Shown: in pieces, positions 7,430 through 63,039 of the stretch
Layout of the letters: every line of letters starts with the position of its first letter
Position numbering within the stretch: position 1 is the stretch's first letter
Assembly: GCA_946547305.1 (NCBI GenBank)
Contig: CAMNOX010000005.1
Span: 8,654 to 72,653, forward strand
DNA: 64,000 nucleotides
DNA from: an uncultured Cytophagales bacterium
Lineage (GTDB): Bacteria > Bacteroidota > Bacteroidia > Cytophagales > Amoebophilaceae
Direction: 5' to 3'
Notes under the pieces: model-generated
The model's input: the letters and a program-made list of their open reading frames with translations, nothing else
Databases searched by the model: none
Told to the model about the DNA's origin: nothing
Translations under genes and position numbers: made by a program

Positions 7430-7488
7430 TTTTATAATGTTTTATCAAAATTTTTATTACCCAATAAAAAGAGGCGAATCATTATTTT

Positions 7489-8424: not shown

Positions 8425-8450
8425 GTTAATAACAGATATATAGGTTAGAT

Positions 8451-8522: not shown

Positions 8523-8536
8523 CAATAATATGTTAA

Positions 8537-45600: not shown

Positions 45601-46302
45601 TATGACGAATGTGGAAATATAAGTAAGGATATTGAACATAAGGATCAACCTGGGAATGTAGATATAGTGGTAATATTGAACACAAGTGAATACCAAGAAA
45701 ACGGGAGAATATTTCCAGAAGCCAGCCCAATGTTACTAAGCAAGATAACAGCAAAATTGAAAAAATATTGTTCTCCATTTTCAAAAATAAACATCATCAA
45801 TCCACAATATGAAGAGTTAAAGGTTATGATTAGAGTAGTCTTTGAAGACGATTTAGATCAAAATATGTACATAAAAATACTAAATAATGAAATATCAAAA
45901 TTCATATCACCTTGGCTCTACGATAACAACATAAACATATGCATCTCAAAAAAAATATCAGTAATAGATTTCATTATATACCTCAAAGCAAAAAGTTATA
46001 TAAAACACATACTTAATTTTAATATTGTAAAATTCTATAAAGACGAAATAATATGTACATATGGCTTTAATGACTCTATATATCCAAATTCATATCATAC
46101 AATTTTCTATTCATCAAGCAGACATGAAATAGTTGTTGATAACTTAAGATGTGATAACAAAAATGATTTAAGTATTGGGAATGCACATATAGAGGAGGAT
46201 TTGATAATAAGTGCAATAAAGGAGAACCGAGAACAAAATGAAGGTAATTCTAAGGTACCTATAGATGAAACCATAAATGAATATTTCCTAAAATTTAAAT
46301 AA
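42631..46302 (+). CDS. giant baseplate-J (gp6/Afp11)-like contractile-injection-system baseplate protein
   Basis: 1223 aa. Near the C-terminus, ...KNRCISADDYVTFILENFNMIKYVEVVKN...QPGNVDIVVIL...INIINPQYEELKVMIRVVF matches the Baseplate_J signature (R.vT..Dye.l....p.v......pG.v.v.v....v..P.y..v.v). Confidence 0.65.
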   Translation: MNTMYDNDKDMSNTKIDQINNICNFINYCYLYSDIIKFDKEDEKINLFCKFLENDDIVIYSLIIKTNHIKLANFFVDKILSLKNTPNIILDSNIIIPVIDIIHEILILLKYWYDNLSEGNKLKNKILVGSEEFLQDITTLLIILQSIENKNSSYEKKLDDITQLLNERPFNYYSYEKIENNVLAKNKINIYTYIFNLIRQTSENLIIKIIELQNVAKNDFFNVLYNKNHNPHISLLLTFSKLLESVNKRVVKFYSRFKDYYYKGVLMFKNLPEKKDHTLIMLTINDSKEKKFIQKNTTVIGKDEINNEDVKFKTINNIQISSTKIKTIRTVSKLLNTSNKYTSSPVAIYKIGEYLMDDVYKNNMILYLFSKKRENDVNFLSTKRNMLGYSFISKIFNLKDGERKITFLFNLDEADLIKFIKTFSEEEIIQQNTDNIISDYVNILNNSFKLDYSSADKVISIPKENISTQWDFANKTIILDIKLTSDMPEVSAPNGKPCDKYANNMPFIRILADNKKLFWAFYTFVNIKFKNITVSVNVTKCNNLTLQNDLGIIDIDTIFQPFGPFPRLNSMIYLTNEEIFSKKISSLKIKIKWDNLPKNGFSQYYREYNKDIDNSSFRVSISLLNGSEWCPINGEDRQVLNLFCEKSDGTLNDETVLDIDINKLRINECTKFIHNQYLTSTSIGGFIKIELISPNIAFGHNLYTKLIAKTLTEKKDKIVKDIVDIEVNSPYTPSIKKISLDYSAETEFNKQTDNEIIINTIHPFGYFKDFPIKTLKPKKSNGDVDLNLWNTSTIYIELIDVNFTVIDLYFMIDEASVHSDKINFKVGYIDKNECVFLDDNAIIEDKTNGFTQSGTIKIRKPNIGKFENTYIENNYKNSLWLAILLLEKRINLPTILGIYYNCVEVIRESKYNNPLTQLSLKSFEDKDLRDIQILQPFKSYGGDIEENDEKMYKRVKNRLQIKNRCISADDYVTFILENFNMIKYVEVVKNYDECGNISKDIEHKDQPGNVDIVVILNTSEYQENGRIFPEASPMLLSKITAKLKKYCSPFSKINIINPQYEELKVMIRVVFEDDLDQNMYIKILNNEISKFISPWLYDNNINICISKKISVIDFIIYLKAKSYIKHILNFNIVKFYKDEIICTYGFNDSIYPNSYHTIFYSSSRHEIVVDNLRCDNKNDLSIGNAHIEEDLIISAIKENREQNEGNSKVPIDETINEYFLKFK

Positions 46303-47208: not shown

Positions 47209-48000
47209 ATGAAAAATGTGTTAAAGGCTAAAATAATTTCTATATTGCTAATGTTAATTTTAGTTAATTTTATTTATTCTGGTTGCAATAATTGTAAAAA
47301 AGAAAGGGAATAATGGTGATAAAAGTAGCAGTAAAACTAATTCAACAGGTAAACCAGATAAAAAACCAATGTTTGGGCTATAAAAACAGCTATAGAAAAT
47401 TATATAAATACCAAAACAGGTAATCGAACAAGCTTGGAAACAACTTGGAAAGTGGGAAATTACACTGATGGTTCATATATTATTACGTTTGAATTATTCA
47501 AAGTGACTATAGCAAAAGGTGAAATCGAAAAGATTACAAGTCCTGTGAATACAACGCAAATTGATAATATTGAAGGGGTTATGCAGATGACTCGTAAGGA
47601 CAAGGTAACTAATTTTATATTTAATAATGGTGGAAAATGTAAATTAGGAGATCTAATGAAATCTCTTAATGCATTAAATGCAAATCTTAGAAATAATAAT
47701 ACTGATGAATATTTGAGGATGGAAGATCTCAATAAAAAATTTATATATAGTTGTTATTTAAATTTAAATAATGGGTTGATGTACAAAATATCTAGCAATT
47801 GTATGATTGGTAGGGCATCAAAGACCATGAGTAGAGACCTCTTTTCTGGTGTTAAGTATCCTTATTACTTTAAAGGTGAATATTATGCTGAAGATGTTAA
47901 ATGGGATATAAAAGATGGAAACCCCAGGGTGAAATACAATGAGGCCCTATTTGAATCGGACGATATAAAAAACTTTAATTTTGAGCTAAAAACTGAGTAG
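47209..48000 (+). pseudogene. leader-family lipoprotein paralog with at least two frameshifts
   Basis: The first frame reads MKNVLKAKIISILLMLILVNFIYSGCNNCKKERE and stops at 47311. GNNGDKSSSKTNSTGKPDKKP continues in a second frame. A third frame (...TTWKVGNYTDGSYIITF..., including ORF 47434-48000) is homologous to the C-terminal domain of 49927-50847. Confidence 0.65.
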
Positions 48001-48432
48001 GTTTATTAGAGTACTATTCAATTAACTAAGATTATTTTTAAATTAGACTATTCTTAGTCTATTTATTTACTTAAATTCAAAATACTAGTGACTTAAAAAT
48101 TATTAATGGTGCCTGTTATATCAATTTGAATAATCGATTATTATATTTTAAGAACGAGAAAGTCTATTTCGGCAGACTGTATAATAAAAAAGGTGATTGG
48201 AAACATTATAATCAAGTCATGGGTTCTTTCTATCTTAACGACATATGTTATAAATTGGATAAGACAAATCATAAATATGACGGAATTAACGATGAATTAA
48301 ATCATAACAATGATTTAATAACACATCCCTAAAACCAGGTCAAATAGATAAATTTAAATTTACTTTTAAAATATCTAAATAAAATATTTTAACTATTTTT
48401 AATAGTTTAGTAATTATTTTACTAACTAAAAT

Positions 48433-49734
48433 ATGTTATTAGTTATGAAGAATATATTTAAATCTGCAGTAATTGTAATATTAATAGTTTTTACCACTAT
48501 TGATTTTATTTACTCTGGGTGTTGTTGTAAAAAGAAAGGTAATAATGGTGGTGATGGTGGTAATAAAAGTAGTAAGATAAAGAGTAAAAACGATGATAAT
48601 CCAAAAGATGAAGAAAAACCAATTTCACTTAAACCAGTTAGAAAAATAATAAAAGACAAGGGAGGGAAAAATATTACAGTTAATTTCGTAAATAACCTCA
48701 TGGATGACTATTTAAATTCGATAGATCTTAAATATTTTGAAAGTAGTGAAGTTGTCGAAAAAATTAATGAGTACAAAACGGCTTTAGCTAAAGAAGCGGA
48801 TATAAATAGTAACATTGAAAAACTAAAGAAAAGGGTTGACCTTAAGAAATTTACAGATTTTTTTGAGAAGTTGGTCACAGAAGTAAACAAATATGTGGAA
48901 TATAAGAAAGTATATGCTGACAGCAATTGGGCACTATTCAAGCAATTATTTTTTATATCGAATAATGGTTTACCAAATATTAATATAAATATTAATGATA
49001 ATAATTTCATATTGGGAAATGATATAGTTAGTAAGTTTAATATGTACGTCAAATTTGATGGTAGTTCAAGTAGTTATGGCAGTAGATATTGCAATGGTTG
49101 TGAATCATCTAAAAAGTATAATAAAAAAGAGTTTTTTAGTTCTCACCCTGAGGATATGGATGTGATCAACAATATATTGTCAAATGACAGCAGTTTATCT
49201 ACTGCTTTGAGTTCCTATAATAATATTGAAGACAATGCTGCGAAAGCTAAAAACGAAGGCTTGATAGGTTATTATTATAAGACCACAGGAGACAATAAAG
49301 CGGCAAGAGTATCATTTAATAAAATCATTCAAATTTATGATTCAAGAATGGCTGCAGCTAAATTACTATATCATCCTATAGAAATGGTGTATATAGATTT
49401 AACATATATTTATAGAACACAATTCTTAAGTGCCATTAATAATTTCTTTAAAGACAGTAGTAACGAATATGATGATTATAGTAAAATCCCAGAGAATATA
49501 AGAAATGAAATAGAAGCTCATAAAGTTGTTGATAAAGCAAAAGAATTGGTAGAATTTTACAATGAGAAGTGCAAGATATTAGCTGAATTGGATGAAATTT
49601 GTAATAATGAGAGAAAAAAGGGAGGCCGGATAGACACACTTGAAGCAGATTTGATAGATGCTATTTCTGAAAAAAATATTGCGAAAATTCATATTGTGAA
49701 TGCAATTAATAATTTTAACATAAGTAATAAGTAG
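48433..49734 (+). CDS. leader-family lipoprotein-like protein with a distinct coiled-coil-rich body
   Basis: 433 aa. ...TTIDFIYSGCCCKKKGNNGGDGGNKSS. The leader/Cys/Gly cassette is nearly identical at nt level to that of 49927-50847. Confidence 0.65.
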   Translation: MLLVMKNIFKSAVIVILIVFTTIDFIYSGCCCKKKGNNGGDGGNKSSKIKSKNDDNPKDEEKPISLKPVRKIIKDKGGKNITVNFVNNLMDDYLNSIDLKYFESSEVVEKINEYKTALAKEADINSNIEKLKKRVDLKKFTDFFEKLVTEVNKYVEYKKVYADSNWALFKQLFFISNNGLPNINININDNNFILGNDIVSKFNMYVKFDGSSSSYGSRYCNGCESSKKYNKKEFFSSHPEDMDVINNILSNDSSLSTALSSYNNIEDNAAKAKNEGLIGYYYKTTGDNKAARVSFNKIIQIYDSRMAAAKLLYHPIEMVYIDLTYIYRTQFLSAINNFFKDSSNEYDDYSKIPENIRNEIEAHKVVDKAKELVEFYNEKCKILAELDEICNNERKKGGRIDTLEADLIDAISEKNIAKIHIVNAINNFNISNK

Positions 49735-49926
49735 TTTTGCAAAAATCGTATATTTTAATGTTTTATTAATTTATTTGTTCAAGTTTTTTTAAATCATTCC
49801 CAGCTAGTATCAGTAATCGTTTTTTTGATATTGTAAACGACGTATAATATAAAATGCAGTATTTTACTCATAAAACTCTATATAATCGTTACTGTTTTTA
49901 AATAAACTTTTTTATACTTAAGATAT

Positions 49927-50847
49927 ATGCGATTTATGAAGAGTGTGTTAAAAGCTAAGACGGCATCTATACTATTGATATTGGTTTCTATTGATTTTAT
50001 TTACTCTGGTTGTTGTTGTAAAAAGAAAGGTAATAATGGTGGTGATGGTCATAGAAGTAGCAGAGGAACTAATTTAACAGGTAGTCAGGGGGATAAAGGA
50101 GATCCAATAAAAACAAAGGTAAAAAGTGAAACTCCAGGAGGTTCACATACAACAAAAACAGTTCCTATTAAACCAGATCCAAGTAAGGTTGTTACTCATA
50201 AAGCGACTGAGGCGGACATTAAGGAGATAACAGATGCTTTAGCAGAATATATGAATAAAAGGGATGGTGTTAATCGAAAAGACATAATAAAAGTATGGAC
50301 GTCTGGAACGGACAGGAATGGTGATTATTATGTTAAATATGAATGTTTTTCTGGGACTATTATAGATAATGACGAATTGATAATTAGTAAGATTAAAAGT
50401 GGTAAAATTTGTGAGCTCCAGGTTAAGTTATTTTTAACGCTTAGTGGGTGTGGATGTGGTTATTATACGTTTAATAAAGATATATGTACCTTGTCAGATC
50501 TAGTGAAATCGCTTAATAAATTAGATAAAGGATTTAGGTATAATAAAGATGAACATTTGTGTGTGATAGACAGTAGTAAAACATTTACAAGTGCACGTTA
50601 TATTAATTTAACTAATGGTATTATGTATGACATTTATCAAAAAGTGTATATTTCTAGGGGTGGTAAGAATGGTAATTTTTTTAGAATGTGTTCTAACCCT
50701 TTATATAATAAAGAAGATGGAAAATTTTATATAAAATTAGGAGACAAGTTTGAATTAGGCGAAGAAATAGAATGTGCAGGTGATTTTAATAAAAAGATAT
50801 ACAATGAAAATGATATAGATAATTTCAAATTACTTCTTAATGTTTAA
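49927..50847 (+). CDS. leader-family lipoprotein-like protein (intact reference copy of the 47.2/50.9 kb pseudogenes)
   Basis: 306 aa. The likely true start is ATG 49936 (MKSVLKAK...). Contains IDFIYSGCCCKKKGNNGGDG. The C-terminal domain has CTLSDLVKSLNKLDKGFR, YINLTNGIMYDI and DIDNFKLLL. Confidence 0.7.
   Translation: MRFMKSVLKAKTASILLILVSIDFIYSGCCCKKKGNNGGDGHRSSRGTNLTGSQGDKGDPIKTKVKSETPGGSHTTKTVPIKPDPSKVVTHKATEADIKEITDALAEYMNKRDGVNRKDIIKVWTSGTDRNGDYYVKYECFSGTIIDNDELIISKIKSGKICELQVKLFLTLSGCGCGYYTFNKDICTLSDLVKSLNKLDKGFRYNKDEHLCVIDSSKTFTSARYINLTNGIMYDIYQKVYISRGGKNGNFFRMCSNPLYNKEDGKFYIKLGDKFELGEEIECAGDFNKKIYNENDIDNFKLLLNV
49936..50013 (+). repeat. 78-nt leader cassette, identical to 52060-52137
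   Basis: atgaagagtgtgttaaaagctaagacggcatctatactattgatattggtttctattgattttatttactctggttgt is read identically at both places. Confidence 0.9.
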
Positions 50848-50929
50848 TCGTTTTGGTGAAAAGTGTTTTTTGTAAATTTATTAATTGTTTTCTTAATTAA
50901 TTTTTTTTATATTTGATTAAAGCTGATTT

Positions 50930-51975
50930 ATGAAAAATGTATTAAAAACTAAAATGGTATCTATACTATTGATATATGTTTCTATTGATTTTATTTACTC
51001 TGGGTGTGGTTCTTGTAGGCCTAGAGGTTATAATGGTGATAATAAAGGAGGTGGAGGTAAAAGTAGCAGTAAAACTAATCTAACAGGCAGTCAATGAGAT
51101 AAGGAAGGTAACCCAGAAAAAATACCGGTAGGTCCACAGGAGATAAAGGAGATAAAGTTGGATAGTGAAGTAGTTAAAGAATTAGTGGAAAAGAAGGTTA
51201 CTATTTCTTCGAGTGATAAAGTTAATAACGATAAATCAAGTTCGCATGTAGATGATAATGATGACGTGACACATATTGAAGGAAGTGGAGGTGCTAGTGA
51301 TAAAGATAGTGCTGGTGAACCAAAGGAGAAAGCTAAGTTAAGTATAGGAAACATACGAAATGTCTTGTCTGGGTATATGAATAATAGATCTGGTTCTAAG
51401 AGAGATGGTATAACAGAGCAATGGAAAATATGTAATTGAGATGATAATGTAACACGTATGACTTTTGGAAGAATTACTGTATCTATTTCGGATGAGCAAA
51501 TTATTACAATTACAGATATTAGTGATATGTCTCAATTTGATAATTTGGTTGTTACGATATCTGTGGAACGTGCGAAAGATGTTAAATTTTGTTTTTATGA
51601 TGATGGAAGATGTGAATTAAGAGATTTAATAAAATCACTTACTGTGTTAGATTCACGTTATAGAGGATTTGATAAAACAGAATATTTATGTTTAGATAAA
51701 TTAAAAGATTTTGAACATGATTATGATGCTTTTTATCTTAATTTGAGTAATGGAGTTTTGTACGTGACTGAAAAAGAAAATTCTGTTTTTCTTTTATAGG
51801 TAGGCCTACTAATGGCACATATAAGTATGCTTTACCTTTGTATGATTGTAATAAATTTTTTTATTTTGATGGGAAACAGTCAATATCTTATCATTCAGGT
51901 TTGGATCTAATGGGTGTAACAGCACTTGGTGAAAATTATATAAAAAAGTTAACGTTCACTCTTAAAACTGCGTAG
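50930..51975 (+). pseudogene. leader-family paralog with two in-frame TGA codons and one frameshift
   Basis: MKNVLKTKMVSILLIYVSIDFIYSGCGSCRPRG... There are in-frame TGA codons at 51095-51097 and 51437-51439, a TAG at 51797-51799, and a -1 shift near 51795 into IGRPTNGTYKYALPLYDCNKFFYFDGKQ...LTFTLKTA (stop at 51973-51975). Confidence 0.65.
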
Positions 51976-52050
51976 TTATGTGTTGATATTGATGAGTAGA
52001 AATTTTTTAGTTTATTTTTTTTATGGTTAATTAAATTTATTATTATATTA

Positions 52051-52881
52051 GTGAGTGTTATGAAGAGTGTGTTAAAAGCTAAGACGGCATCTATACTATT
52101 GATATTGGTTTCTATTGATTTTATTTACTCTGGTTGTGCTGGTTGTAGGGTACGTGGGAAGAGTAGTGACAAGGTAGGAGATAGTTCTAAAGAAAAAAAC
52201 AACAAGAAGAGCCATGATGAATTGAGTAAATTAACTATTAGGAGGCCAATTGTAACCCCAAGAAAGAATGAAGAAGTTAAGAAAATAGTTATTAATAGTG
52301 ATCTCAGAGGTAGAGAAAATATCCCATATAAAAGTAGAATTTCTGTGAAAATGAGTGATAAGTCTGGCTTACCTAACCAATTTGGACTGAGTAGAATTAA
52401 CCAAAAGCACGAGGATGTGTCTAACTGTTTTAGTAATAAAATTAGTCTATATAATAATAATGTAGATAGTGATAATGTAGATAGTGATAATGTAGATAGT
52501 GATAATGAAATTGAATTGGTCAATGATAATATTGAGGGAATGAGAGGTAATATTCTAGAAAATAAAAATATTTCTAAAAATAATAATTCTATTTCCGTTG
52601 AAAGTAATGTTATTGAGAAATCTATGGATGATGTTATCTTAGATAATGCCACAAGATTATCTGAGTTTACTGCTGATGATCTTAAAGCTAAGACTAGTGT
52701 GGCATGCAAAGGACACAATAATAATAGTATTACTAATTCTACTAAATACAAAGAAGGGAATTCTGATAAAAAGGAGGGGGAAAATGGGGAGAGTAACGAT
52801 AGTATCATTGGAAAAATTATGTCTTTATTTTCCAAAGGTGTTCCTATAGAAGATTATAATTTTAATTATGGTTTTTTGTAA
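52051..52881 (+). CDS. leader-family lipoprotein-like protein with a different, low-complexity body
   Basis: 276 aa. The likely start is ATG 52060. IDFIYSGCAGCRVRGKSS, followed by an Asn/Ser/Asp-rich sequence. Confidence 0.6.
   Translation: MSVMKSVLKAKTASILLILVSIDFIYSGCAGCRVRGKSSDKVGDSSKEKNNKKSHDELSKLTIRRPIVTPRKNEEVKKIVINSDLRGRENIPYKSRISVKMSDKSGLPNQFGLSRINQKHEDVSNCFSNKISLYNNNVDSDNVDSDNVDSDNEIELVNDNIEGMRGNILENKNISKNNNSISVESNVIEKSMDDVILDNATRLSEFTADDLKAKTSVACKGHNNNSITNSTKYKEGNSDKKEGENGESNDSIIGKIMSLFSKGVPIEDYNFNYGFL
52060..52137 (+). repeat. 78-nt leader cassette, identical to 49936-50013
   Basis: See 49936-50013. Confidence 0.9.
52462..52506 (+). repeat. 15-nt tandem repeat (gtagatagtgataat) x3, coding for VDSDN x3
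   Basis: Read directly from the sequence, with copy starts at 52462, 52477 and 52492. Confidence 0.9.
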
Positions 52882-53183
52882 TTACCATTTCTCTTTAATT
52901 GATTTCCAATAATTAATCATAAGTCATAAATTCTCTAAGATAGTTTTTAAGTTTTTTTCTTGATTGACGTAGTTTTATTTGAAAAAAGTTAGTACTCTAT
53001 TGTTAAATTCATTTTGTATTTTTTTTGGGGGGCATGGTTATTTTTTATAGTTTTTTATATTTTAGTAGTCATTTAGTTATTAAACAGTTTTTTGTCATCT
53101 CATTTGATGTTTTACACTAGTTGTAAATATATTACTTGGTTAGGATTTGTTTTGCATGATTTTAAATTTAAATAGTTAATATC

Positions 53184-56100
53184 ATGGGTGAGAAGAAAAA
53201 GTTTTACGTACTTAATATGTTTCCGTATCCTTCAGGTGAGGGATTGCATGTTGGACATTTGCTGGGATATGTGGCTAGTGATATATTTGCTAGATATAAA
53301 AAGATGAAGGGTTATAGTGTTATTAATCCTATTGGTTTTGATTCTTTTGGGCTTCCTGCAGAGCAATTTGCTATATTGACTGGTCAACATCCATCAGTTA
53401 CAACTGATAAAAATACTGCACATTATATTGAGCAGATGAAGAATGTTGATCTTGATTTTGATTGGGAACGTACAATTAGAACATCTGATCCGAGTTATTA
53501 CAAATGGACTCAATGGATATTTATTCAAATGTTTAATAGTTTTTATTGTAAGAAGGATAATAAGGCTCATAATATAAAAGATCTTTACACGTATTTTTCG
53601 CAGAATGGTACGGCTAATATAAGAGATTATGCATTTTTTAAGGATTCTATATATGCGTTTACAGCTGAGCAGTGGAATGATTTTAGTGACGATAAGAAAT
53701 ATAAAATAAGTTTAGATTATAGAATTGCGTATTTAGATGACATTGAGGTTAACTGGTGTGAAGAACTAAAAACCGTTTTGGCTAATGATGAAGTTAAGAA
53801 TGGTGTTTCTGAACGAGGAGGATATCCTGTAACTAAAAGGAAAATGCGGCAGTGGGTTCTACGTATAACTGCTTTTGCTGATAGATTATTACAGGATTTA
53901 GATTATTATTATGAGAGATTAGATAATGTAAGAAATAGGAGTATTGAGTTTACTGAGGAAGATATTTTAGGTAATGATTTGTCTTTTGAAAAGTTATTTG
54001 ATTTTGGGATAAAGGAAGGATTACCTGTATTCAAGTCGAATATAATATTGGTTGTTATTAAACATTGGAGTGAGAATAAATATTTGATATTAAGGTACAC
54101 TATAGATAATTCTACAGGTTTTTTGACAGGGAAAATTGAGGAAGGTGAAACTTCTTTGGATGCTTTAAAGAGGGAGATTAGAGAGGAAACTGGTTTTATA
54201 AATATAAGACGTATTGAATTTGTGTGTAAAACAAGGTGTACCTTATATGTTCATAGGAAAAATGTAAATGCTTCGTCAAATACTATAAACTATTATGTTG
54301 AATTAGAAAATGATCAGCAAGTACCGATTAGCGATGAAGAAAAAAGTAAACAGACATATTTCTTTGTAGATGAGGCTGATGTTGCTCAATATCTAGAAGA
54401 TGAAGATTTTGTTTATATTTTCGACAAGGTTAGAAGCAATATAAGAAGATGTGAATTAAATTGGCCTGAATCGACTAAGGAGATGCAGAGGAATTGGATA
54501 GGAAAGTCAGAAGGTGCTCAAATTAGATTTAAAGTTGATGGAGTTGATTATAGTATTACAATATTTACTTCAAGGCCTGAAACAATATTTGGAGTAACAT
54601 TTATAGCAATTTCCAAGGATAATGATTTTGTGAAAATGTATTGTAATGATTTGGATATATGTAGTGTTAAAGAAGACGTGGATGTAAAGATAGGAGTGAA
54701 TACTGGTTATTTTGCTATAAATCCTATTAATAATAAAAGGATACCTATTTGGATTGCTAATTATGTATTGTCTGATTATGGTACTGGAGCTATAATGGGA
54801 GTTCCACAATTAGATGATAGAGATAAAGATTTCGCTGATAAATATAATATCATAGTTAAGAATATATTTAATGATGGGTGTTTTATAAATTCAGACTTTT
54901 TAAATGGTTTAGATGTTGAGGATGGGCGAAAACGGATTTTAGATAAAATTGAGGAGTTAAAAATTGGGAATAAAAAAACTATTTATAAACTTAGAGACGC
55001 AATATTTAGTCGTCAAAGGTATTGGGGAGAGCCTATTCCTGTTTATTATAAAAGCGTTAATATAGATGGCGAGTTTGTAGATTTACCGTTTACAGTCTCT
55101 GAATGTGATTTACCATTAAAATTACCAGATATAGATAGATTTGAACCTACAGGTCATGCACCTTTGAAGCGGGCAAAGAATTGGGAATATAAAGGTAATA
55201 ATTTAGAGGTTAATACAATGCCTGGATGGGCTGGTAGTAGTTGGTATTTTTTAAGATACCTTGATCCTAAAAACGACAGTGAAATAGTTTCTAAAGATAA
55301 ATTAAAGGAATTTGGAAGTGTGGATTTATATTCTGGGGGGGCTGAACATGCTGTAGGACACCTTTTATATAGTAGGTTTTATACAAAATTTTTAAATGAT
55401 TTAGGATATATTGATTTCGAAGAACCTTTTAAAAAATTAATACATCAGGGAATGATTCTTGGTGAGTCAGCAATAATTTATAGAAATAGTAATAATGAGT
55501 TTGTAAGTAGTGATATTAAAGGAGATAATAATTTGACACCAATTCATATTAATGTAAAGTTTGTTGATATGGATAATAATGTTGATATAAATGAATTGCG
55601 TAATTGGAGAGATGATTTTAGAAATGCTAGGTTTTTTTGTAATAAAGGTAACAAGTTTGTTTGCGATAGGATTGTCGAAAAAATGTCTAAATCGAAATAC
55701 AATGTTATTAATCCTGACGATGTTATAGATAAGTATGATTCAGATGTATTGAGAATGTATTTGATGTTTTTAGGGCCTATCGATCAGCAAAAACCTTGGA
55801 GTACTAAAAATATTGAAGGTATTTCTAGGTTTTTAAGGAAGGTAAATAATTGTGTAAATAAAGTTGTTGATAAAAAATCAGAAGATAATGAACTCAAATT
55901 AATCAATAGATGTATTAAAAATGTCGAGGATGATATTGAAAATTACTTATTTAACACTGCTATTAGTTCGATGATGATATGCTTAAATGGACTGTGTGAT
56001 TTAGAGTATATTAGTCTTGATGTATTTAAAAGTTACTTATTGCTATTAAAATCATTTGCTACACAAACTGTAAAAAATATATGGCCTAAATTGTTTAAAG

Positions 56101-56345
56101 TAGAGGATTTGGATGAAATGAAGTTTCCAGAATATGATTCAAAATACTTAATTGAAGATACAGTTGAGTATCCAGTAATGATAAATGGTAGGATTAGGGC
56201 TAAAATTAATATTAGTAAGGAGTCTTCTGATGATAAAATCAAGGATATTGTTTTGTGTAATGAGATTGTAAAAAGGTGGTTAGATGCGCGAAATATAAAG
56301 AAATTTTTAATAATTAGAGATAAGATTGTGAGTATCGTTGTGTAG
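53184..56345 (+). CDS. leuS: leucine--tRNA ligase with an inserted Nudix-like domain and a short N-terminus
   Basis: 1053 aa. MFPYPSGEGLHVGH (HIGH), the CP1 editing motif TSRPETIFG, RQRYWGEPIP, GGAEHAVGHLLYSRF and KMSKSK. Confidence 0.95.
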   Translation: MGEKKKFYVLNMFPYPSGEGLHVGHLLGYVASDIFARYKKMKGYSVINPIGFDSFGLPAEQFAILTGQHPSVTTDKNTAHYIEQMKNVDLDFDWERTIRTSDPSYYKWTQWIFIQMFNSFYCKKDNKAHNIKDLYTYFSQNGTANIRDYAFFKDSIYAFTAEQWNDFSDDKKYKISLDYRIAYLDDIEVNWCEELKTVLANDEVKNGVSERGGYPVTKRKMRQWVLRITAFADRLLQDLDYYYERLDNVRNRSIEFTEEDILGNDLSFEKLFDFGIKEGLPVFKSNIILVVIKHWSENKYLILRYTIDNSTGFLTGKIEEGETSLDALKREIREETGFINIRRIEFVCKTRCTLYVHRKNVNASSNTINYYVELENDQQVPISDEEKSKQTYFFVDEADVAQYLEDEDFVYIFDKVRSNIRRCELNWPESTKEMQRNWIGKSEGAQIRFKVDGVDYSITIFTSRPETIFGVTFIAISKDNDFVKMYCNDLDICSVKEDVDVKIGVNTGYFAINPINNKRIPIWIANYVLSDYGTGAIMGVPQLDDRDKDFADKYNIIVKNIFNDGCFINSDFLNGLDVEDGRKRILDKIEELKIGNKKTIYKLRDAIFSRQRYWGEPIPVYYKSVNIDGEFVDLPFTVSECDLPLKLPDIDRFEPTGHAPLKRAKNWEYKGNNLEVNTMPGWAGSSWYFLRYLDPKNDSEIVSKDKLKEFGSVDLYSGGAEHAVGHLLYSRFYTKFLNDLGYIDFEEPFKKLIHQGMILGESAIIYRNSNNEFVSSDIKGDNNLTPIHINVKFVDMDNNVDINELRNWRDDFRNARFFCNKGNKFVCDRIVEKMSKSKYNVINPDDVIDKYDSDVLRMYLMFLGPIDQQKPWSTKNIEGISRFLRKVNNCVNKVVDKKSEDNELKLINRCIKNVEDDIENYLFNTAISSMMICLNGLCDLEYISLDVFKSYLLLLKSFATQTVKNIWPKLFKVEDLDEMKFPEYDSKYLIEDTVEYPVMINGRIRAKINISKESSDDKIKDIVLCNEIVKRWLDARNIKKFLIIRDKIVSIVV
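53904..54461 (+). other. ~186-codon in-frame insertion in leuS containing a complete Nudix box (nt 54129-54197)
   Basis: G316 KIEEG E TSLDALK RE I R EE T G F338 fits GX5EX7REUXEEXGU at every defined position. The flanks (...ADRLLQDLD | ...NWPESTKEMQRNWIGKSEG) are adjacent in ordinary LeuRS. Confidence 0.8.
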
Positions 56346-56395
56346 GAATTTGTTTTTTTATAAAAGAATTTTTATGTTTTTAATTAACAATAAAT

Positions 56396-57688
56396 ATGTT
56401 TGTTTTTTATTTGGTTATCTTGAATATTGTTTTTAGTGGCAATTATTTATATTGTAGAAACTGTTGTGAATCTTGTAAATGTTGTTGTTGTACTAAAATT
56501 GGGCCAAATGGTCCAGGTAGTCTAAAAGGTAAACCTACAAAACGCAAACCTAAAAATGATATTAAGGTATTACAATGCTCGACCTACGACCATGATACAT
56601 TGCAACGTGAGTTTTGCTTTCAAAATTACTCGTTTTTACAAAAAGATAATGCATGTTGGTTAACAAGTTATTTATTATCAGCCTTTAATATTCCTTTTTT
56701 CCAAAACGCTATAAAAAATTACATATATGATGGTAAGCAAGAGCATTATTATCTAAAAATAATTCAAGATTTATTTAATGACATGCAAACTAAGCAAGGA
56801 GTTTATGATGTTGATTTCGATAAATATTATAGAAGGTTTATTGAGGATGGAAAAATAAATCATAAAGAATTTTATAAGCCACAGGATCATGGAGGTTTTT
56901 CTAATGATCCTAATTTTATGCATTTGTATATACTAAAAGACGTTCCTTTTTGTTGTTACTTTGACTTTTATTTGGTTTCCCTTTGTCAAGTTGCTACAAA
57001 TTTGTTATCTAATGATGTTTTATTTAAAAAACAACTTAATGAGTTTCTTCAATATTCACCACCGTTATATATTCTTAATATTGTATTAAACAACATTATC
57101 TCTAACTACCTTTCAAAGAATGGCACTCCTGAATATATTATTAATGATTCTGATGATAAAAATTTAAAAGAAATATATATAACTTTTACTGATCCATTAT
57201 TTTTTGTTCCAAAGCGAAAAGGCGATAAGCCTAAATATGGTGTTCCGATAGAAGGGAGATATAGAAATCTTATTTTATTAGCGGAAAAGGATATAGTAGA
57301 AGAGTTCAAGGAGTTGGGAAAGTACTTTATGAAAGAAGGTCGTAAATTTTTTAAAAGTAGTAAAAATGGTTCTATTAGCGATTTTTTTGCTGAGATGAAG
57401 CAGAAAATGGATAGATATACATATGAGTTAAACGCTGTGATTTGTGGTGGCCTTCATGTTATATCAGTTGTAAAGGATAATAAAAATAATAAGACTTATG
57501 ATTTACATGCATCTTATGAATGTGATGGTCTGTTTTCTAGAGAAATTCCTAATGATTTTTTAGATCCAGAGAATTTTTGTTTTCTTGAAAATACAACTTG
57601 TAAAAAATGTAAGAATGGTAATTGTAATTTAAATCATTATTCTCACGCTTGTGTTTTTTTTGTATCTGTTTATAGGAAAAACAATTAA
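56396..57688 (+). CDS. USP (peptidase C19)-like cysteine protease / deubiquitinase candidate with a Cys-rich leader
   Basis: 430 aa. The leader ends NYLYCRNCCESCKCCCCTK. The Cys-box-like sequence is NACWLTSYLLSAF (Cys87, nt 56654-56656). The His-box-like sequence is YELNAVICGGLHVISVVKD (His354, nt 57455-57457). Confidence 0.55.
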   Translation: MFVFYLVILNIVFSGNYLYCRNCCESCKCCCCTKIGPNGPGSLKGKPTKRKPKNDIKVLQCSTYDHDTLQREFCFQNYSFLQKDNACWLTSYLLSAFNIPFFQNAIKNYIYDGKQEHYYLKIIQDLFNDMQTKQGVYDVDFDKYYRRFIEDGKINHKEFYKPQDHGGFSNDPNFMHLYILKDVPFCCYFDFYLVSLCQVATNLLSNDVLFKKQLNEFLQYSPPLYILNIVLNNIISNYLSKNGTPEYIINDSDDKNLKEIYITFTDPLFFVPKRKGDKPKYGVPIEGRYRNLILLAEKDIVEEFKELGKYFMKEGRKFFKSSKNGSISDFFAEMKQKMDRYTYELNAVICGGLHVISVVKDNKNNKTYDLHASYECDGLFSREIPNDFLDPENFCFLENTTCKKCKNGNCNLNHYSHACVFFVSVYRKNN

Positions 57689-57812
57689 AATAAGCTTAGA
57701 TTTTTAATACTAATATTTAAGATAGAAAGCATAATTATTTATTGTGGATGTTTTTAATTGTAAAAAAACAGTAAAATTTTGTTTTTTTAAAAAATATATT
57801 ATCTGAGATAGC

Positions 57813-58700
57813 ATGTTTTGTTGTTTTAATAAACCTAGAAGGTTAGGCAGAGGTATGGTTATTTCGTGGTTAATTTTATTTTGTATTCCGTATGTTGTTA
57901 GTGGAATGGAAAAGATTAATTTCAACGAGAAGGTTAATAAAAATAATTCTTTTTATATAGGTGGTACTTCAGAAGTTGTTTGTGTTAAGGATTTAGATAG
58001 TTTAATACATAAAGAGAATAATGCGTCGGTCTGTATGTTAGCTGAGGGTGTAACGTTTAAGGATATTTACAGACCCAACTTACATACAGAGCTTTTTGAA
58101 AAAGATGTCTTGATTGAATTCGTTAGTTCTGATTTAAAAAAAATTGAGGATTATTTTTATTTAGTGAACTGTATTCAGACAAATACAGATTGTCTTAATT
58201 TTATGTGTAATGAAGAAACTTTTGATAAAATATTTAAAAATTTTCTAAAAATAATTGGTGAAGTATTTGAAGGTGATGAGATAAAACAGAATGATAAATC
58301 GTCAGATTCAAATACTAATTATGGTTTTTTGTCAAAAGTGATTTGCGATATTATAAAAAAGACTTTGGTTGAAAATTATTTTGGAAATTATGTTAGTAGC
58401 AGTGTAGGCAATATTAGGAGTAAATATAACAAAATTTATGAACAAATTGAGAAAACTTATAAAGAGGATTTAGGTTCATGTAATAAATATTTTAATGATT
58501 TTGGGATAGATATAGTATCTAAATTGCGTGGTGTCAAATTGGTTGATTTTTATAGTTATATTATAGTTGAGTCGTTTAATCTTTTTATTAATGGTGTAAA
58601 TGGAAGAAAAATTAAAAAGGATGATCTTGAAGATATTTTAAAGAGTTTGTATTTGGATAAAATTAGGCTAAGATATATAGATATTTGTGCTATTTTATGA
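57813..58700 (+). CDS. hypothetical protein with an LRR-family-type leader (…VVSGMEKINFNEKVNKNN); possibly the detached 5' part of the next gene
   Basis: 295 aa. It begins MFCCFNKPRRLGRG, followed by a hydrophobic segment. The leader resembles those of 61732 and 63242 (…INGMES.N.K..YN). It overlaps the next ORF by 14 nt in another frame. Confidence 0.5.
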   Translation: MFCCFNKPRRLGRGMVISWLILFCIPYVVSGMEKINFNEKVNKNNSFYIGGTSEVVCVKDLDSLIHKENNASVCMLAEGVTFKDIYRPNLHTELFEKDVLIEFVSSDLKKIEDYFYLVNCIQTNTDCLNFMCNEETFDKIFKNFLKIIGEVFEGDEIKQNDKSSDSNTNYGFLSKVICDIIKKTLVENYFGNYVSSSVGNIRSKYNKIYEQIEKTYKEDLGSCNKYFNDFGIDIVSKLRGVKLVDFYSYIIVESFNLFINGVNGRKIKKDDLEDILKSLYLDKIRLRYIDICAIL

Positions 58701-61551
58701 AGATATTTTTAGGTTGGCCGGTATAGAAAAATATGAAAATTCTGAATCGTGTGGTGAAGGAAATAAAGGTCTGTTTTTCTATGATTTGCTTTTTAAATAT
58801 TTGAGAAAGGAAGTATATATGAAGATTAATTATCGTAAGAGTTCGTGTCAAAAGGAGCAGAATATATTTTCAGAAGATTTTGTTAAAAGAAATCATGGCA
58901 ATGCTTATATACGTATTGATGGTGCAGTAAAAGAATTATGTAGTCAAATTAAAGTGGATAAATATAATGAAGATATAGAATTGTCGCTTGTGTTGAAAGG
59001 ATGTGCTGATATAAATTTATCAGATATGTTTAGAGGATGTTCGCTTTTATATCGTGTTGAATGTTCTAATGGTTTTTTTGATAATGTTACCAGTATGCAG
59101 TCTATGTTTTATAAATGTGGATTATTAAAATCATTACCAGATATATCTAAATGGAATACTGGTAAGGTTACTAATATGAGTAAAATGTTTGATGGATGTA
59201 ATTTATTATCAACATTGCCAGACATATCTAAATGGTATACTAGTAATGTTACTAATATGTGTGGTATGTTTGATGGATGTGAATTATTAACATCATTACC
59301 AGATATATCTATGTGGGATACTAGTAATGTTAAAGATATGAGTTATATGTTTAAAGGATGTGAGAAATTATCATCATTACCAGATATATCTAAATGGAAT
59401 ACTAGTAATGTTACTGATATGAGTGGTATGTTTAGTGGATGTAAATTATTAAAAGTATTACCAGATATATCTAAATGTAATACTGTTAGTGTTACTAATA
59501 TGAGTTATATGTTTAAAGGATGTGAGAAATTATCATCATTACCAGATATATCTAAATGGAATACTAGTAATGTTACTGATATGAGTTATATGTTTTATGA
59601 ATGTAAAAAATTAACATCATTGCCAGATATATCTAAATGGAATACTAGTAATGTTACTAATATGAGTTATATGTTTAGAAATTGTAGTAAATTAACCTCA
59701 TTACCAGATATATCTAAATGGAATACTTGTAAGGTTTCTAATATGAATAATATGTTTTTTGAATGTGTATCATTATTATCCTTACCAGATATATCTAAAT
59801 GGAATACTGGTGATGTTAAATATATGGCTTCTGTGTTCAGTGTATGTAGAGGATTAACATCGTTACCAGATATATCTAAGTGGGATACTAGTAATGTTAC
59901 TGATATGAGTTATATGTTTAGAGAATGTTCGTCATTAAGATCATTATCAGATATATCTAAATGGAATACTAGTAAGGTTACTAATATGAGTAATATGTTT
60001 AATGGATGTGAGGAATTAACATCATTACCAGATATATCTAAATGGAATACTAGTAGTGTTACTGATATGAGTAATATGTTTAATGAGTGTATGTCATTAT
60101 CATCATTACCAGATATATCTAAATGGAATACTAGTAAGGTTAAAAATATGAGTAATATGTTTTATAATTGTATATCATTAACATCATTACCAGATATATC
60201 TAAATGGAATACTAGTAATGTTACTAAGATGAGTAATATGTTTGAAGGATGTGAGGCATTAGAATTATTACCTGATTTATCTAGATGGAATATTAGTAAT
60301 GTTTTGAGCGTTGGTAATAGTCTTACTTGTGATGGTGCTGGTATGCAAAGAATGTTTAATGGTTGTTTATCGCTATTGGCCCCATGCATTGATAGTAGGT
60401 TAAGGTGTATTAGGATGTGTAATTTTTATCTTAACAATTCGTGTCCTTATTATTTCAAAGCGAGAAAATATAATAATTTTAAGGATGTGTATGAAATAGG
60501 TAAATCGTATGGTAGTATGGATGGCTTTATAGCTTTCTTAGATATTTCGTATAAGGTCCATGAATTAGGTGTTGTAATTAAATTATTTTCCGAGCGTTTT
60601 TTCTATAAAAATTGTTTAAAATGTCTTGACTCTGCATTTTATGAAGATTGTAAAAAAGTTGGTTCTGGAAATGTTTTTGTTCTTACTAATAAATGTGAAG
60701 AGGAATATAATTTTATTCATCTTTATGAACGTTGGGATGAATCGTTTCGTGTTAAAATTTGTAAAAAGAAAGATAGTAATGGAGATTTTATTATTTCTGT
60801 AAAGTTATTAAGGGACGCAAATATGTGTGCTATTGATTTGTCAGAGTTGTTTATGGGGTGTTCATATTTATATAGTGTTGAATTTCTTGGGGACCCTATT
60901 GAGGTTACTGGTATGCATTCTGTGTTTAATGGATGTAGTAGTTTAGTATCAGTTAAAGGTATGTATAAATGTATGACTAAAGAAGTTAAAAATATGAGTG
61001 CTATGTTTAATATGTGTTCATCATTAACATCATTACCAGATATATCTAAATGGAATACTAATAATGTTATTTTTTTGAATCATATGTTCAATAGATGTAA
61101 AGCATTAACATCATTACCAGATATATCTGGATGGAATACTAGTAATGTTATTACTACGTGTTGTATGTTTTATAATTGTTCAAAATTAATATCATTACCA
61201 GATATATCTAAATGGAATACTAGTAATGTTGAATATATAGGTGGAATGTTCGTTGGTTGTTCATCATTATTATCATTGCCAGATATATCTAAATGGGATA
61301 CTAGAAAAGTTAGGAATATTGGTTATGTGTTTGCTATATGTAGGTCATTAACTACTTTACCAGATATATCTAAATGGAATACTAGTAAAGTCACTGATAT
61401 GAGTTATATGTTTTACGGGTGTTCTTCATTATCAAAATTACCAGATATATCTAAATGGAATACTAGTAATGTTATTGAGATGTGTGATATGTTTAGTGGA
61501 TGTATTCAATTGATAATATCAAAGGGAGTACGAGAGAAATTTAATAAATAA
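58687..61551 (+). CDS. DUF285/BspA-like leucine-rich-repeat protein with two repeat blocks
   Basis: 954 aa, with a GTG start in the track and an alternative ATG at 58819. It has about 15 plus about 6 copies of the LPDISKWNTSNVT.MS.MF..C..L.S unit. A head-like module (…LSDMFRGCSLLY / …LSELFMGCSYLY) recurs before each block. Confidence 0.8.
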   Translation: MLFYEDIFRLAGIEKYENSESCGEGNKGLFFYDLLFKYLRKEVYMKINYRKSSCQKEQNIFSEDFVKRNHGNAYIRIDGAVKELCSQIKVDKYNEDIELSLVLKGCADINLSDMFRGCSLLYRVECSNGFFDNVTSMQSMFYKCGLLKSLPDISKWNTGKVTNMSKMFDGCNLLSTLPDISKWYTSNVTNMCGMFDGCELLTSLPDISMWDTSNVKDMSYMFKGCEKLSSLPDISKWNTSNVTDMSGMFSGCKLLKVLPDISKCNTVSVTNMSYMFKGCEKLSSLPDISKWNTSNVTDMSYMFYECKKLTSLPDISKWNTSNVTNMSYMFRNCSKLTSLPDISKWNTCKVSNMNNMFFECVSLLSLPDISKWNTGDVKYMASVFSVCRGLTSLPDISKWDTSNVTDMSYMFRECSSLRSLSDISKWNTSKVTNMSNMFNGCEELTSLPDISKWNTSSVTDMSNMFNECMSLSSLPDISKWNTSKVKNMSNMFYNCISLTSLPDISKWNTSNVTKMSNMFEGCEALELLPDLSRWNISNVLSVGNSLTCDGAGMQRMFNGCLSLLAPCIDSRLRCIRMCNFYLNNSCPYYFKARKYNNFKDVYEIGKSYGSMDGFIAFLDISYKVHELGVVIKLFSERFFYKNCLKCLDSAFYEDCKKVGSGNVFVLTNKCEEEYNFIHLYERWDESFRVKICKKKDSNGDFIISVKLLRDANMCAIDLSELFMGCSYLYSVEFLGDPIEVTGMHSVFNGCSSLVSVKGMYKCMTKEVKNMSAMFNMCSSLTSLPDISKWNTNNVIFLNHMFNRCKALTSLPDISGWNTSNVITTCCMFYNCSKLISLPDISKWNTSNVEYIGGMFVGCSSLLSLPDISKWDTRKVRNIGYVFAICRSLTTLPDISKWNTSKVTDMSYMFYGCSSLSKLPDISKWNTSNVIEMCDMFSGCIQLIISKGVREKFNK
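59137..60300 (+). repeat. 81-nt (27-codon) tandem coding repeat array, block 1
   Basis: The ccagatatatctaaatgg anchors recur at 59137, 59218, 59299, and so on (period 81). Confidence 0.9.
61036..61500 (+). repeat. 81-nt tandem coding repeat array, block 2
   Basis: The same anchor recurs from 61036 to 61441. Confidence 0.9.
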
Positions 61552-61647: not shown

Positions 61648-63039
61648 TTGAGTGTAGATGGTAGAATAAATTTTAGTATATTGTTTTTATTAAAAATTAT
61701 ATTAAATACAATTATGTTTTGTGTTAGTTATATGTTTAGCTATATGAGGAATATTATATTTGGATTAATAAAGTTTGGAATGATTTTGTCAATGAGTTTT
61801 TCATTAATTAATGGTATGGAGAGTAATAAGAATGTTAAAAGTAGCTATAATAACGTTGATAAGGTTGTAAAAGCGAAATATGAATTGAGTGAAGGTGTAA
61901 ATAATATAAATATACTTGGTAGTGTGTTTGTTAAGAATAATAAGGATAATTTTAATATGTATGTAAATGGTAAGGAGCGTGAGTTGTGTGAGTACGTTAG
62001 TGTCAATGATGTTAATGCTGATAGTAATAATCTTGCCGTCAGTTTGTCTTATAAATATGGAAGGAATACTAATATTGACAATTTGTCATGTATGTTTTGG
62101 ATGTGTAGTGGTGTGAAGTATGTTAAATTCTCTGGTAAGTTTAATACTATTAATGTTACTAATATGATGGGCATGTTTTATGGGTGTTCTTCATTATCAT
62201 CATTACCAGATATATCTAAATGGAATACTAGTAATGTTATTGAAATGACTGGTATGTTTGCAGGATGTTCATCGTTAATATCATTACCAGATATATCTAA
62301 ATGGAATACTAGTAATGTTATAAATATGAGTTATATGTTTGAAGGATGTTGGTCATTATCATTATTACCAGATATATCTAAATGGAATACTAGTAGAGTT
62401 ACTAATATGAGTAGTATGTTTGCAGGATGTTCATCGTTAATATCATTACCAGATATATCTAAATGGAATACTAGTAATGTTATAAATATGAGTTATATGT
62501 TTGAAGGATGTTGGTCATTATCATTATTACCAGATATATCTAAATGGAATACTAGTAATGTTACCCATATGAGTTATATGTTTAATAGATGTTCATCATT
62601 AGTATCATTACCAGATATATCTAAATGGAATATTAGTAATGTTAGAAATGTGAATAGTATGTTTTATGGATGTTCATCATTATCATTATTACCAGATATA
62701 TCTAAATGGAATACTAGTATGGTTACTGATATGTGTCATATGTTTTTTAATTGTTCATCATTAGTAACATTCCCAGATGTATCTAAATGGAACACTAGTA
62801 ATGTTATTAGTACGTCTGGTATGTTTGAAGAATGTTCATCGTTATCATCCTTACCAGATATATCTAAATGGGATGCTAGGTATATTGGTGACATGGATAA
62901 TATGTTTTATGGGTGTTCATCATTATTATCTTTACCAGATACATCTGTATGGTTTATTAGAGGTCTTGAATATATGTATGAGATGTTTGATGTGTGTAAT
63001 TTTTTGATATTGCAGGGTATGGAAAAATTTAATAAATGA
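61648..63039 (+). CDS. DUF285/BspA-like leucine-rich-repeat protein with signal peptide
   Basis: 463 aa in the track. The likely start is ATG 61714 or 61732 (MFSYMRNIIFGLIKFGMILSMSFSLING). A head domain (KYELSEGVNNINILGSVFVKNNKDNFNMYVNGKEREL) is followed by about 10 repeat units. Confidence 0.8.
   Translation: MSVDGRINFSILFLLKIILNTIMFCVSYMFSYMRNIIFGLIKFGMILSMSFSLINGMESNKNVKSSYNNVDKVVKAKYELSEGVNNINILGSVFVKNNKDNFNMYVNGKERELCEYVSVNDVNADSNNLAVSLSYKYGRNTNIDNLSCMFWMCSGVKYVKFSGKFNTINVTNMMGMFYGCSSLSSLPDISKWNTSNVIEMTGMFAGCSSLISLPDISKWNTSNVINMSYMFEGCWSLSLLPDISKWNTSRVTNMSSMFAGCSSLISLPDISKWNTSNVINMSYMFEGCWSLSLLPDISKWNTSNVTHMSYMFNRCSSLVSLPDISKWNISNVRNVNSMFYGCSSLSLLPDISKWNTSMVTDMCHMFFNCSSLVTFPDVSKWNTSNVISTSGMFEECSSLSSLPDISKWDARYIGDMDNMFYGCSSLLSLPDTSVWFIRGLEYMYEMFDVCNFLILQGMEKFNK
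62206..62960 (+). repeat. 81-nt tandem coding repeat array
   Basis: Anchors at 62206, 62287, and so on. The array includes the exact duplicate pair 62254-62395 = 62416-62557. Confidence 0.9.

Follow-up and report, generated by a model that had tools for sequence, protein, structure and literature searches.

Background

Bacterial aminoacyl-tRNA synthetases (aaRSs) are usually regarded as architecturally conservative. They make diadenosine tetraphosphate (Ap4A) from aminoacyl-adenylate plus ATP, and Nudix enzymes such as RppH/NudH and NUDT2 degrade this compound. In NadM-Nudix, a Rossmann-fold nucleotidyltransferase with a HIGH motif is covalently joined to a Nudix domain that acts on a nucleotide related to its partner. 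A fusion conceptually close to NadM-Nudix is found in leuS, the gene for leucyl-tRNA synthetase (LeuRS), in a stretch of 64,000 nucleotides from an uncultured Cytophagales bacterium of the Amoebophilaceae (GenBank assembly GCA_946547305.1, contig CAMNOX010000005.1, positions 8,654 to 72,653). This whole stretch is called the window here, and positions are counted from its first letter. The LeuRS of the window is interrupted in frame by a segment with a genuine Nudix fold and an intact catalytic box, located directly ahead of the CP1 editing domain.

A Nudix domain within leuS

The leuS open reading frame (ORF) occupies positions 53184..56345 of the + strand, as do all features of the gene described below. 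It encodes a bacterial-type LeuRS of 1053 amino acids (aa) plus stop, without internal stops. The protein scores 791.9 bits against the NCBIfam model TIGR00396 (leuS_bact), for which the curated cutoff is 548.4. In Pfam terms the protein has a class I catalytic, a LeuRS editing and an anticodon-binding domain, with NUDIX (PF00293) between them. The CP1 editing domain (Pfam tRNA-synt_1_2, 150 bits) spans 54489..54938 (aa 436-585). In an alignment of 43 sequences (A2), the columns of the HIGH motif of the synthetic site, here HVGH (53247..53258, aa 22-25), are invariant. Conserved columns are also found for the T-rich editing motif FTSRPETIFG (54564-54593, aa 461-470), the GTG...D..RD editing motif GTGAIMGVPQLDDRD (54780-54824, aa 533-547) and KMSKS (55680..55694, aa 833-837). 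The full-length AlphaFold model has a predicted local distance difference test score (pLDDT) of 83.6 and a predicted template modelling score (pTM) of 0.73. Foldseek matches it to LeuRSs of E. coli, Neisseria and Thermus (4aq7, 5on2 and 2bte among the entries) with E of ~1e-60 to 1e-64 and TM-to-target up to 0.82 (0.81 for E. coli 4aq7). The preliminary description of this DNA had taken the gene for a working leuS on its intact HIGH, KMSKS and editing motifs. Profile score and three-dimensional architecture agree with the motifs: this is very probably the organism's working leuS, and its product is a bona fide bacterial LeuRS.

The position of the insert is defined by an alignment of the window protein with 29 relatives, 10 of which are insert-free. 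The insert-free set consists of sister LeuRSs (P0034-P0055, 898-956 aa) and distant Cytophagales LeuRSs (Pontibacter, Amoebophilus, Cardinium, and Thermonema). In these proteins ...RLL.DL is linked to (I/V)(N/D)WPESTKEMQRNWIG by ~4 residues, while the window protein has 186 extra residues exactly there. Because the loop of the insert-free LeuRSs is so short, ordinary orthologues do not carry an equivalent, non-Nudix insertion at this place. The inserted segment (53904..54461, aa 241-426; 186 codons) is absent from the sister LeuRSs. Ahead of it, the last ancestral LeuRS segment is the helix ITAFADRLLQDLD (53865..53903, aa 228-240). Behind it, NWPESTKEMQRNWIGKSEG (54459..54515, aa 426-444) forms a helix and a strand leading into CP1. 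The preliminary description was right in the length of the insert (about 186 extra codons without stops), in its place just ahead of the CP1 editing domain and in the downstream anchor from aa 426; a trivial slip in the upstream anchor, given there as aa 231-240, is corrected here.

Against a Pfam NUDIX cutoff of 21.1 bits, the whole protein reaches 36.4 bits and the segment nt 53904-54461 taken by itself 40.4 bits (E = 3.5e-10), far more than chance would give. The Nudix box GKIEEGETSLDALKREIREETGF (54129..54197, aa 316-338) has every fixed position of GX5EX7REUXEEXGU, as had been read from the sequence at the outset, and includes the catalytic residues E322, R330, E331, E334, and E335. A relaxed-pattern six-frame scan of all 64 kb gave this one match only and no second Nudix-box site. 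The box lies between the clade motif VVIKHW (54051..54068; H294, W295) and the family signature RKNVN (54255..54269), whose K359 and N362 are near-invariant in all groups, free-standing relatives included. In an AlphaFold2 model of the insert based on a 17-sequence alignment, mean pLDDT is 84.5 and pTM 0.81, with the core above 90. Within the gene, the structured core of the Nudix fold (53991..54443, about aa 270-420; pLDDT about 90) is built of mixed sheet and helices. A low-confidence, presumably flexible linker (53919..53954, aa 246-257; pLDDT below 50) joins it to the LeuRS body. Foldseek matches the insert model to hundreds of Nudix enzymes in the Protein Data Bank (PDB) at probability 1.0, including MutT, NudC, NudI, CT771, and RppH. 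TM-to-target is 0.75-0.83 for 2azw, 3i7u, 3a6s, and 3oga. The Ap4A hydrolases 3i7u (Aquifex, 0.82) and 4mpo are among the best structural matches. Profile score, box with metal-binding glutamates and predicted alpha/beta/alpha sandwich fold thus all place the insert in the Nudix superfamily, and the initial proposal of an in-frame Nudix-like domain in LeuRS is confirmed by sequence profile and predicted structure alike.

Distribution and insertion sites

The preliminary description named no earlier aaRS-Nudix fusion of this kind. The fusion is no peculiarity of this genome. The same Nudix clade is found inside LeuRS in at least 220 proteins or cluster representatives, and some LeuRS-Nudix proteins already exist in NCBI and UniRef, labelled as LeuRS only. 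The labels of some relatives in these databases read 'Leucyl-tRNA synthetase' or 'class I tRNA ligase family protein'. The Nudix insert may explain why NCBI downgrades many LeuRSs of the candidate phyla radiation (CPR) to the second of these names.

A profile of the insert scanned over GTDB species-representative genomes gave 183 relatives. Among the best 80 of these 183, 75 are inside LeuRS ORFs and only one (L001) has the arrangement of the window. The carriers are mainly CPR/Patescibacteria (e.g., Saccharibacteria, Paceibacterota, Moraniibacteria, Kaiserbacteria, and Nomurabacteria). Further carriers are metagenome-assembled genomes (MAGs) labelled Bacilli (with small genomes), Gammaproteobacteria, and Muribaculaceae. 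When 1.84 billion representatives were searched exhaustively with a hidden Markov model, 284 proteins reached E <= 1e-10. With the domain profile, LeuRS segments are present in 94 of the 149 best 50%-identity representatives. Among the remaining matches, 8 of 10 of mid length are LeuRS editing-domain fragments, and about 40 are free-standing proteins of roughly 160 aa. PF00293 is found in 119 of the 120 closest relatives of one CPR LeuRS.

When mapped onto an insert-free reference, the domains fall at separate sites. Site A, the site of the window before WPESTKEMQRNWIG, has 66 domain copies. Site B, in the first hairpin of CP1, has 14 copies. Site C, inside CP1 about 75-85 aa after GTGxxM, has 154 copies. 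The Nudix clade occupies at least these three sites, all in or beside CP1, and single LeuRS proteins have up to three Nudix domains. Judged by these sequences, the clade appears to be a distinct one, resident almost exclusively inside LeuRS, in or next to CP1.

The gene contexts of free-standing relatives are also informative. One such relative (P0304, locus L087-L090) is directly after argS and near a gene for isoleucyl-tRNA synthetase (IleRS). Others are found directly before thrS-miaA, between queA and rnc-rnj, and after two femAB genes near trmB (each in one of the loci L083-L086, L091-L093, and L094-L096). Thus four of five free-standing contexts have aaRS, tRNA or RNA-processing neighbours, and the fifth relative is without a telling context. 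The IleRS near P0304 is itself unusual. This 1167-aa protein (gene at ~6386-9889 of the locus) contains an inserted His_Phos_1 domain (aa 506-669, 107 bits). It is followed 2 nt downstream by a gene for a 141-aa Nudix protein, with argS and then P0304, the free-standing member of the LeuRS-Nudix clade, upstream. Here a phosphohydrolase is embedded in another class Ia synthetase, the second such case.

Conservation of the catalytic residues and selection on the insert

Conservation was counted over 308 aligned Nudix copies. The three glutamates of REx2EE are present in 154/154, 151/154, and 154/154 of the site C copies of CPR. At site A, the counts are 15/15 for the non-Cytophagales copies and 48-50 of 51 for those of Cytophagales. 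Of 222 LeuRSs, 199 have one or more copies in which the E/R/E/E/E set is fully intact. Near-invariant glutamates are the pattern of an active enzyme and not of a scaffold, and the embedded domain is very probably an active accessory Nudix hydrolase within a working LeuRS. Outside the box, embedded and free-standing members share near-invariant K359, N362, L374, and E386 (numbered as in the window protein), and these residues define the clade. The H and W of VVIKHW are invariant in the Cytophagales group; in CPR copies they are the commonest residues but variable.

Selection on the insert was estimated by comparison with L001, an orthologue from a Cytophagales MAG with 75% amino-acid identity in the insert. 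The ratio of nonsynonymous to synonymous substitutions (dN/dS, Nei-Gojobori method NG86) is 0.13 for the insert, with dS of 1.03, and 0.12 for the LeuRS core. Purifying selection on the insert is equal to that on the LeuRS core.

An identical 1053-aa protein exists on at least 5 contigs (up to 165 kb) from independent NCBI, ENA, and Logan assemblies, and leuS with its neighbours is reproduced on two ENA contigs from different samples. The view that the insert is not an artefact is thus borne out. Guanine plus cytosine (GC) content (0.29-0.31) and GC skew are continuous from the insert into the rest of the gene, and the idea of recent foreign DNA is not supported by this match. An intein or mobile element is also rejected. 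The junctions, ...LQDL|DYYY... and ...CELN|WPES..., are without splicing motifs, and a search of both insert borders found no meaningful direct or inverted repeats.

Copy number of the domain in Cytophagales

A full-protein search of 5.8 billion proteins found about 45 LeuRS clusters with PF00293 at the site of the window and 46-76% identity. The full Nudix box is kept in nearly all of them, and 'MAG: leucine--tRNA ligase [Cytophagales bacterium]' is the sole name that occurs in the group. Two tandem Nudix domains exist at this site in P0002-P0008, P0013, and P0056. In most tandem proteins the first copy is of the 'GGIE.NE...LDFEW' type and the second of the 'GKIE.GE...KQTYFFV' type; the exception is the basal P0056, which has two GGIE copies. 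The LeuRS of the window keeps only the second type.

In a neighbor-joining tree of the LeuRS cores, with inserts removed, all Nudix-bearing proteins form one clade next to Cardinium and Amoebophilus. Within this clade the states with no domain (0x), one (1x), and two (2x) are interleaved. Core identity is 93.8% between P0018 (1x) and P0051 (0x), and 94.4% between P0010 (1x) and P0007 (2x). On contigs L099 (2x), L100 (1x), L101 (0x), and L102 (1x), which come from closely related, symbiont-like genomes, leuS starts at 4001 in each and follows the same upstream order of TPR, OmpH, an unannotated ORF, S26 peptidase, and PAP2. The locus is orthologous in all four and apparently single-copy, with a variable number of cassettes. 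In L102 and L099, the type-1 Nudix cassette differs by a dS of only 0.10, against 0.60 for the surrounding LeuRS cores. This difference suggests that the Nudix cassette has been exchanged by recombination. Wherever it is present in the Cytophagales clade the domain is conserved, despite being dispensable for LeuRS. With its natural 0x, 1x, and 2x alleles, the locus offers an experiment already set up by nature.

Two side observations belong to this clade. Genes for ubiquitin C-terminal hydrolases (UCH) are found downstream of leuS in the L099-L102 loci, hinting at a eukaryote-associated lifestyle. P0014, a 1243-aa relative of the window LeuRS on a 22-kb Logan contig, has a degenerate Nudix-like domain without the box at the site of the window, and an intact second Nudix domain ~25 residues downstream, within the FKV|ITIFT hairpin with which CP1 begins. 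In this lineage the Nudix domain seems to have hopped within the gene.

Possible substrate and role

Assignment of the domain to a characterized Nudix subfamily failed. Searches of NCBIfam, PDB sequences, PDB and viral structures with Foldseek, PHROGs, and PADLOC gave only generic or box-level matches. Among NCBIfam models, RppH (NF001936) scores best in 17 of 17 aligned members and YtkD (TIGR02705) in 16 of 17, with MutT, NudB, NudI, and NudE close behind. RppH reaches 33 bits against a cutoff of 118 and YtkD 29 bits against 154. With no score above about 33 bits where 118-154 would be required, the domain does not qualify as an RppH orthologue. It is not a MutT either (TIGR00586, 25.7 bits vs 97.9; NF008044, 23.2 vs 148; box region only), nor does it belong to NadM-Nudix (NF003786, 15 bits against a cutoff of 397). 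Weak PDB sequence matches to 1f3y, 3i7u, and 1kt9 (E about 1e-3 to 1e-2) are no better than those to other Nudix families. The PADLOC match PDC-S07 (28 bits) covers the box only, and the viral structure library gives the same generic Nudix picture.

Two features bear on the substrate. The domain core is acidic, with a median isoelectric point (pI) of about 5.4 in every group, and a small-nucleotide substrate therefore fits better than direct RNA binding. The aaRS, tRNA or RNA neighbourhoods of free-standing relatives, together with the near-exclusive residence in LeuRS around CP1, suggest a substrate linked to aaRS, tRNA or RNA metabolism.

The explanation we prefer is that a Nudix pyrophosphohydrolase module, which folds independently and keeps its catalytic residues, was spliced into a surface loop at the base of CP1, which would make the protein a bifunctional LeuRS/Nudix enzyme. 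The module would hydrolyse a small nucleoside-diphosphate-X compound connected with synthetase chemistry. The likeliest substrates would be dinucleoside polyphosphates of the Ap4A/Ap3A type, formed from aminoacyl-adenylate plus ATP or ADP, or related Np4N. Tethering would provide stoichiometric co-expression and local clearance. The hydrolase would be an accessory, and charging and editing by LeuRS would not need it. We give this explanation as a whole, i.e., a working leuS with an embedded Nudix domain acting on a synthetase-linked nucleotide, a probability of roughly 55%. The specific assignment to Ap_nA compounds is tentative and, in our judgement, would sooner prove wrong than right.

Several points weigh against this explanation. 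The best NCBIfam models (RppH NF001936, YtkD, MutT, and NudB) remain at ~20-33 bits against cutoffs of 98-154, and no single Nudix subfamily stands out in the Foldseek search of the PDB. To our knowledge, LeuRS is not among the strongest producers of Ap4A. The domain has been cleanly lost several times among close relatives, whose LeuRS cores are ~94% identical with and without it; this repeated clean loss means that the Nudix domain, and therefore any coupling, is dispensable for LeuRS function. Finally, some LeuRSs of CPR have additional inserted domains: a Ham1 ITPase (PF01725), the nuclease domain DUF559 (PF04480) with a REase-like domain (PF18741), alpha/beta-hydrolases (PF12695, PF00561, and PF06821), and PF10706. 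They are found in the LeuRS-Nudix proteins P0334, P0357, P0360, P0362, P0371, P0377, P0388, P0391, P0403, and P0427, and fit a permissive insertion hot spot in the LeuRS of CPR.

Alternative explanations

The last two points lead to the alternative that survives best, which we nevertheless consider unlikely. The fusion could be one of convenience, in which a generic house-cleaning Nudix enzyme of the MutT type, sanitizing nucleoside triphosphates, sits in a permissive loop of an essential, constitutively expressed gene of small-genome bacteria, with no link to leucylation. A syntenic locus with 0, 1 or 2 copies, from which the domain has been repeatedly and cleanly lost, is consistent with such a passenger. 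So are the apparent exchange of the cassette by recombination (dS 0.10 in the Nudix cassette, 0.60 in the flanking cores) and the presence in CPR LeuRSs of Ham1, which is another house-cleaning nucleotide pyrophosphatase, beside alpha/beta-hydrolases. The carriers (CPR bacteria, symbiont-like Cytophagales, and small-genome Bacilli MAGs) are also of the expected kind. This alternative does not explain why this one Nudix clade is so nearly confined to LeuRS among essential proteins, or why it has settled in distant phyla at three or more independent sites, each of them within CP1 or next to it. The neighbours of four of five free-standing relatives and the MutT models, far below their cutoffs, also argue against a house-cleaning role.

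CP1 binds the CCA end, and the concentration of insertion sites in it or next to it can also be read in favour of a role in RNA or tRNA end-processing. An RppH-like Nudix domain on CP1 would then remove a pyrophosphate-containing group from tRNALeu or another RNA. In support of this rather improbable alternative, the RNA pyrophosphohydrolase models are the best NCBIfam matches (17/17 for NF001936 and 16/17 for YtkD), the genes next to free-standing relatives include rnc-rnj, queA, miaA, trmB, femAB, and aaRS genes, and presence/absence polymorphism is frequent in conflict-related functions. RppH, which binds RNA, is basic, but this domain is acidic (pI about 5.4), and with ~33 bits against a cutoff of 118 it is not an RppH orthologue. 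It is reported that toxSAS enzymes pyrophosphorylate the CCA ends of tRNAs (PMC11559606; bioRxiv 10.1101/2021.04.30.441581). However, no paper linking Nudix enzymes with toxSAS repair was found in the literature, and a Pfam scan of neighbouring ORFs saw no toxin genes near leuS within the window.

A related, slimmer chance is that the domain is a translation-protecting module for repair or immunity on CP1. Its task would be to take off a pyrophosphate-type lesion, or to break down an effector of nucleotide type directed against tRNA or aaRS. Proposed targets are the 3'-pyrophosphate left by toxSAS/CapRel-like toxins, Np4A caps, and an adenylate-mimic inhibitor of LeuRS. If so, the 0/1/2 polymorphism and the cassette exchange would reflect ongoing conflict, and the IleRS with His_Phos_1, which has free Nudix genes on its flanks, would provide a second example of this theme.

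A non-catalytic domain, which would sense a ligand or serve as a structural element and tune CP1 movement or LeuRS activity allosterically, is very improbable. Insertion at the hinge of a mobile domain is a classic route to allostery, the equivalents of E322 or R330 are substituted in about 10% of copies, and P0014 has one degenerate copy. These observations stand against metal-binding glutamates that are essentially invariant over hundreds of diverged copies, a dN/dS of 0.13 for the insert, and close relatives in which LeuRS functions though the domain is absent. Such a role is effectively excluded, and so is an assembly artefact: an assembly chimera or decaying pseudogene, for which no support was found, is almost certainly wrong, given the identical ORF in independent ENA, NCBI, and Logan assemblies, the matching composition of insert and gene, about 45 diverged orthologous clusters with the same junctions, and the purifying selection on the insert.

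Surroundings of leuS in the window

The N-terminus of the window LeuRS is unusually short. Its start (53184) is ~10 residues ahead of the strand that leads into HIGH (MGEKKKFYVLNMFPYPSG), and the N-termini of relatives are longer by 10-35 residues. The region 50000-58000 has ~29% GC, a strongly and persistently positive GC skew (about 0.3-0.6) and nearly all its genes on the + strand. A Pfam scan of six ORFs flanking leuS (47434-52881 and 56396-58700, +) gave no match. Among these six are a low-complexity 276-aa ORF with NVDSD repeats (52051-52881, +), accompanied by a 236-aa antisense shadow ORF, and a cysteine-rich 430-aa ORF (56396-57688, +) whose N-terminus contains ...CRNCCESCKCCCCT.... 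Further downstream are two large DUF285 ('Mycoplasma protein') repeat proteins (58687-61551 and 61648-63039, +; 898 and 343 bits), typical of the surface repeat proteins of host-associated bacteria. Upstream, a 1223-aa ORF (42631-46302, +) has a sub-threshold Baseplate_J-like match (19.6 bits vs 21.1). It could be a component of a contractile-injection or phage-tail-like system.

Comparison with known systems

That another catalytic domain, apparently active, sits within or beside the LeuRS editing domain is unexpected, all the more as it recurs at three or more sites and in CPR, Cytophagales symbionts, and small-genome Bacilli MAGs. The finding suggests an unrecognized link between leucylation or tRNA handling and nucleotide-pyrophosphate metabolism. 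Full-text searches of the literature found no description of a LeuRS-Nudix or any other aaRS-Nudix fusion.

The related activities are known from separate proteins. RppH/NudH, other Nudix Ap4A hydrolases, and the eukaryotic LysRS-Ap4A-NUDT2 system degrade aaRS-made Ap4A/Np4A and decap Np4A- or ppp-RNA. In these, as in the RppH/ApaH-Ap4A system, hydrolase and synthetase are not in one polypeptide, unlike in the window, and the domain of the window is acidic and far from the RppH model (33 vs 118 bits). NadM-Nudix (NMN adenylyltransferase/ADP-ribose pyrophosphatase) differs in that its fusion is terminal and its partner is not an aaRS. Phage versions of NadM-Nudix have been mentioned (PMC7824862). 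An extra catalytic domain within a class Ia synthetase, as in the window, is found in IleRS with GNAT (NF040702) and in the IleRS with His_Phos_1 of L087-L090. There the inserted enzyme families and the synthetase are different, and no described function was found.

The closest counterparts are the LeuRS-Nudix proteins of CPR (e.g., 'Leucyl-tRNA synthetase [Candidatus Nomurabacteria bacterium GW2011_GWA2_43_15]'). They are known as database entries, and no description or experiment was found for them in the literature. Like the window protein, they have a Nudix domain of the same clade (24-38% identity), in frame in or at CP1, with intact catalytic residues and the shared K..N, L, and E residues outside the box. 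Unlike it, they have the domain mostly at the site inside CP1, ~75-85 aa after GTGxxM, and their LeuRS backbone is of the CPR type and not of the Bacteroidota type. The LeuRS-Nudix fusion is thus common in nature, visible in databases and apparently uncharacterized, and the window, from a Cytophagales symbiont lineage, holds one variant of it, a single copy at site A.

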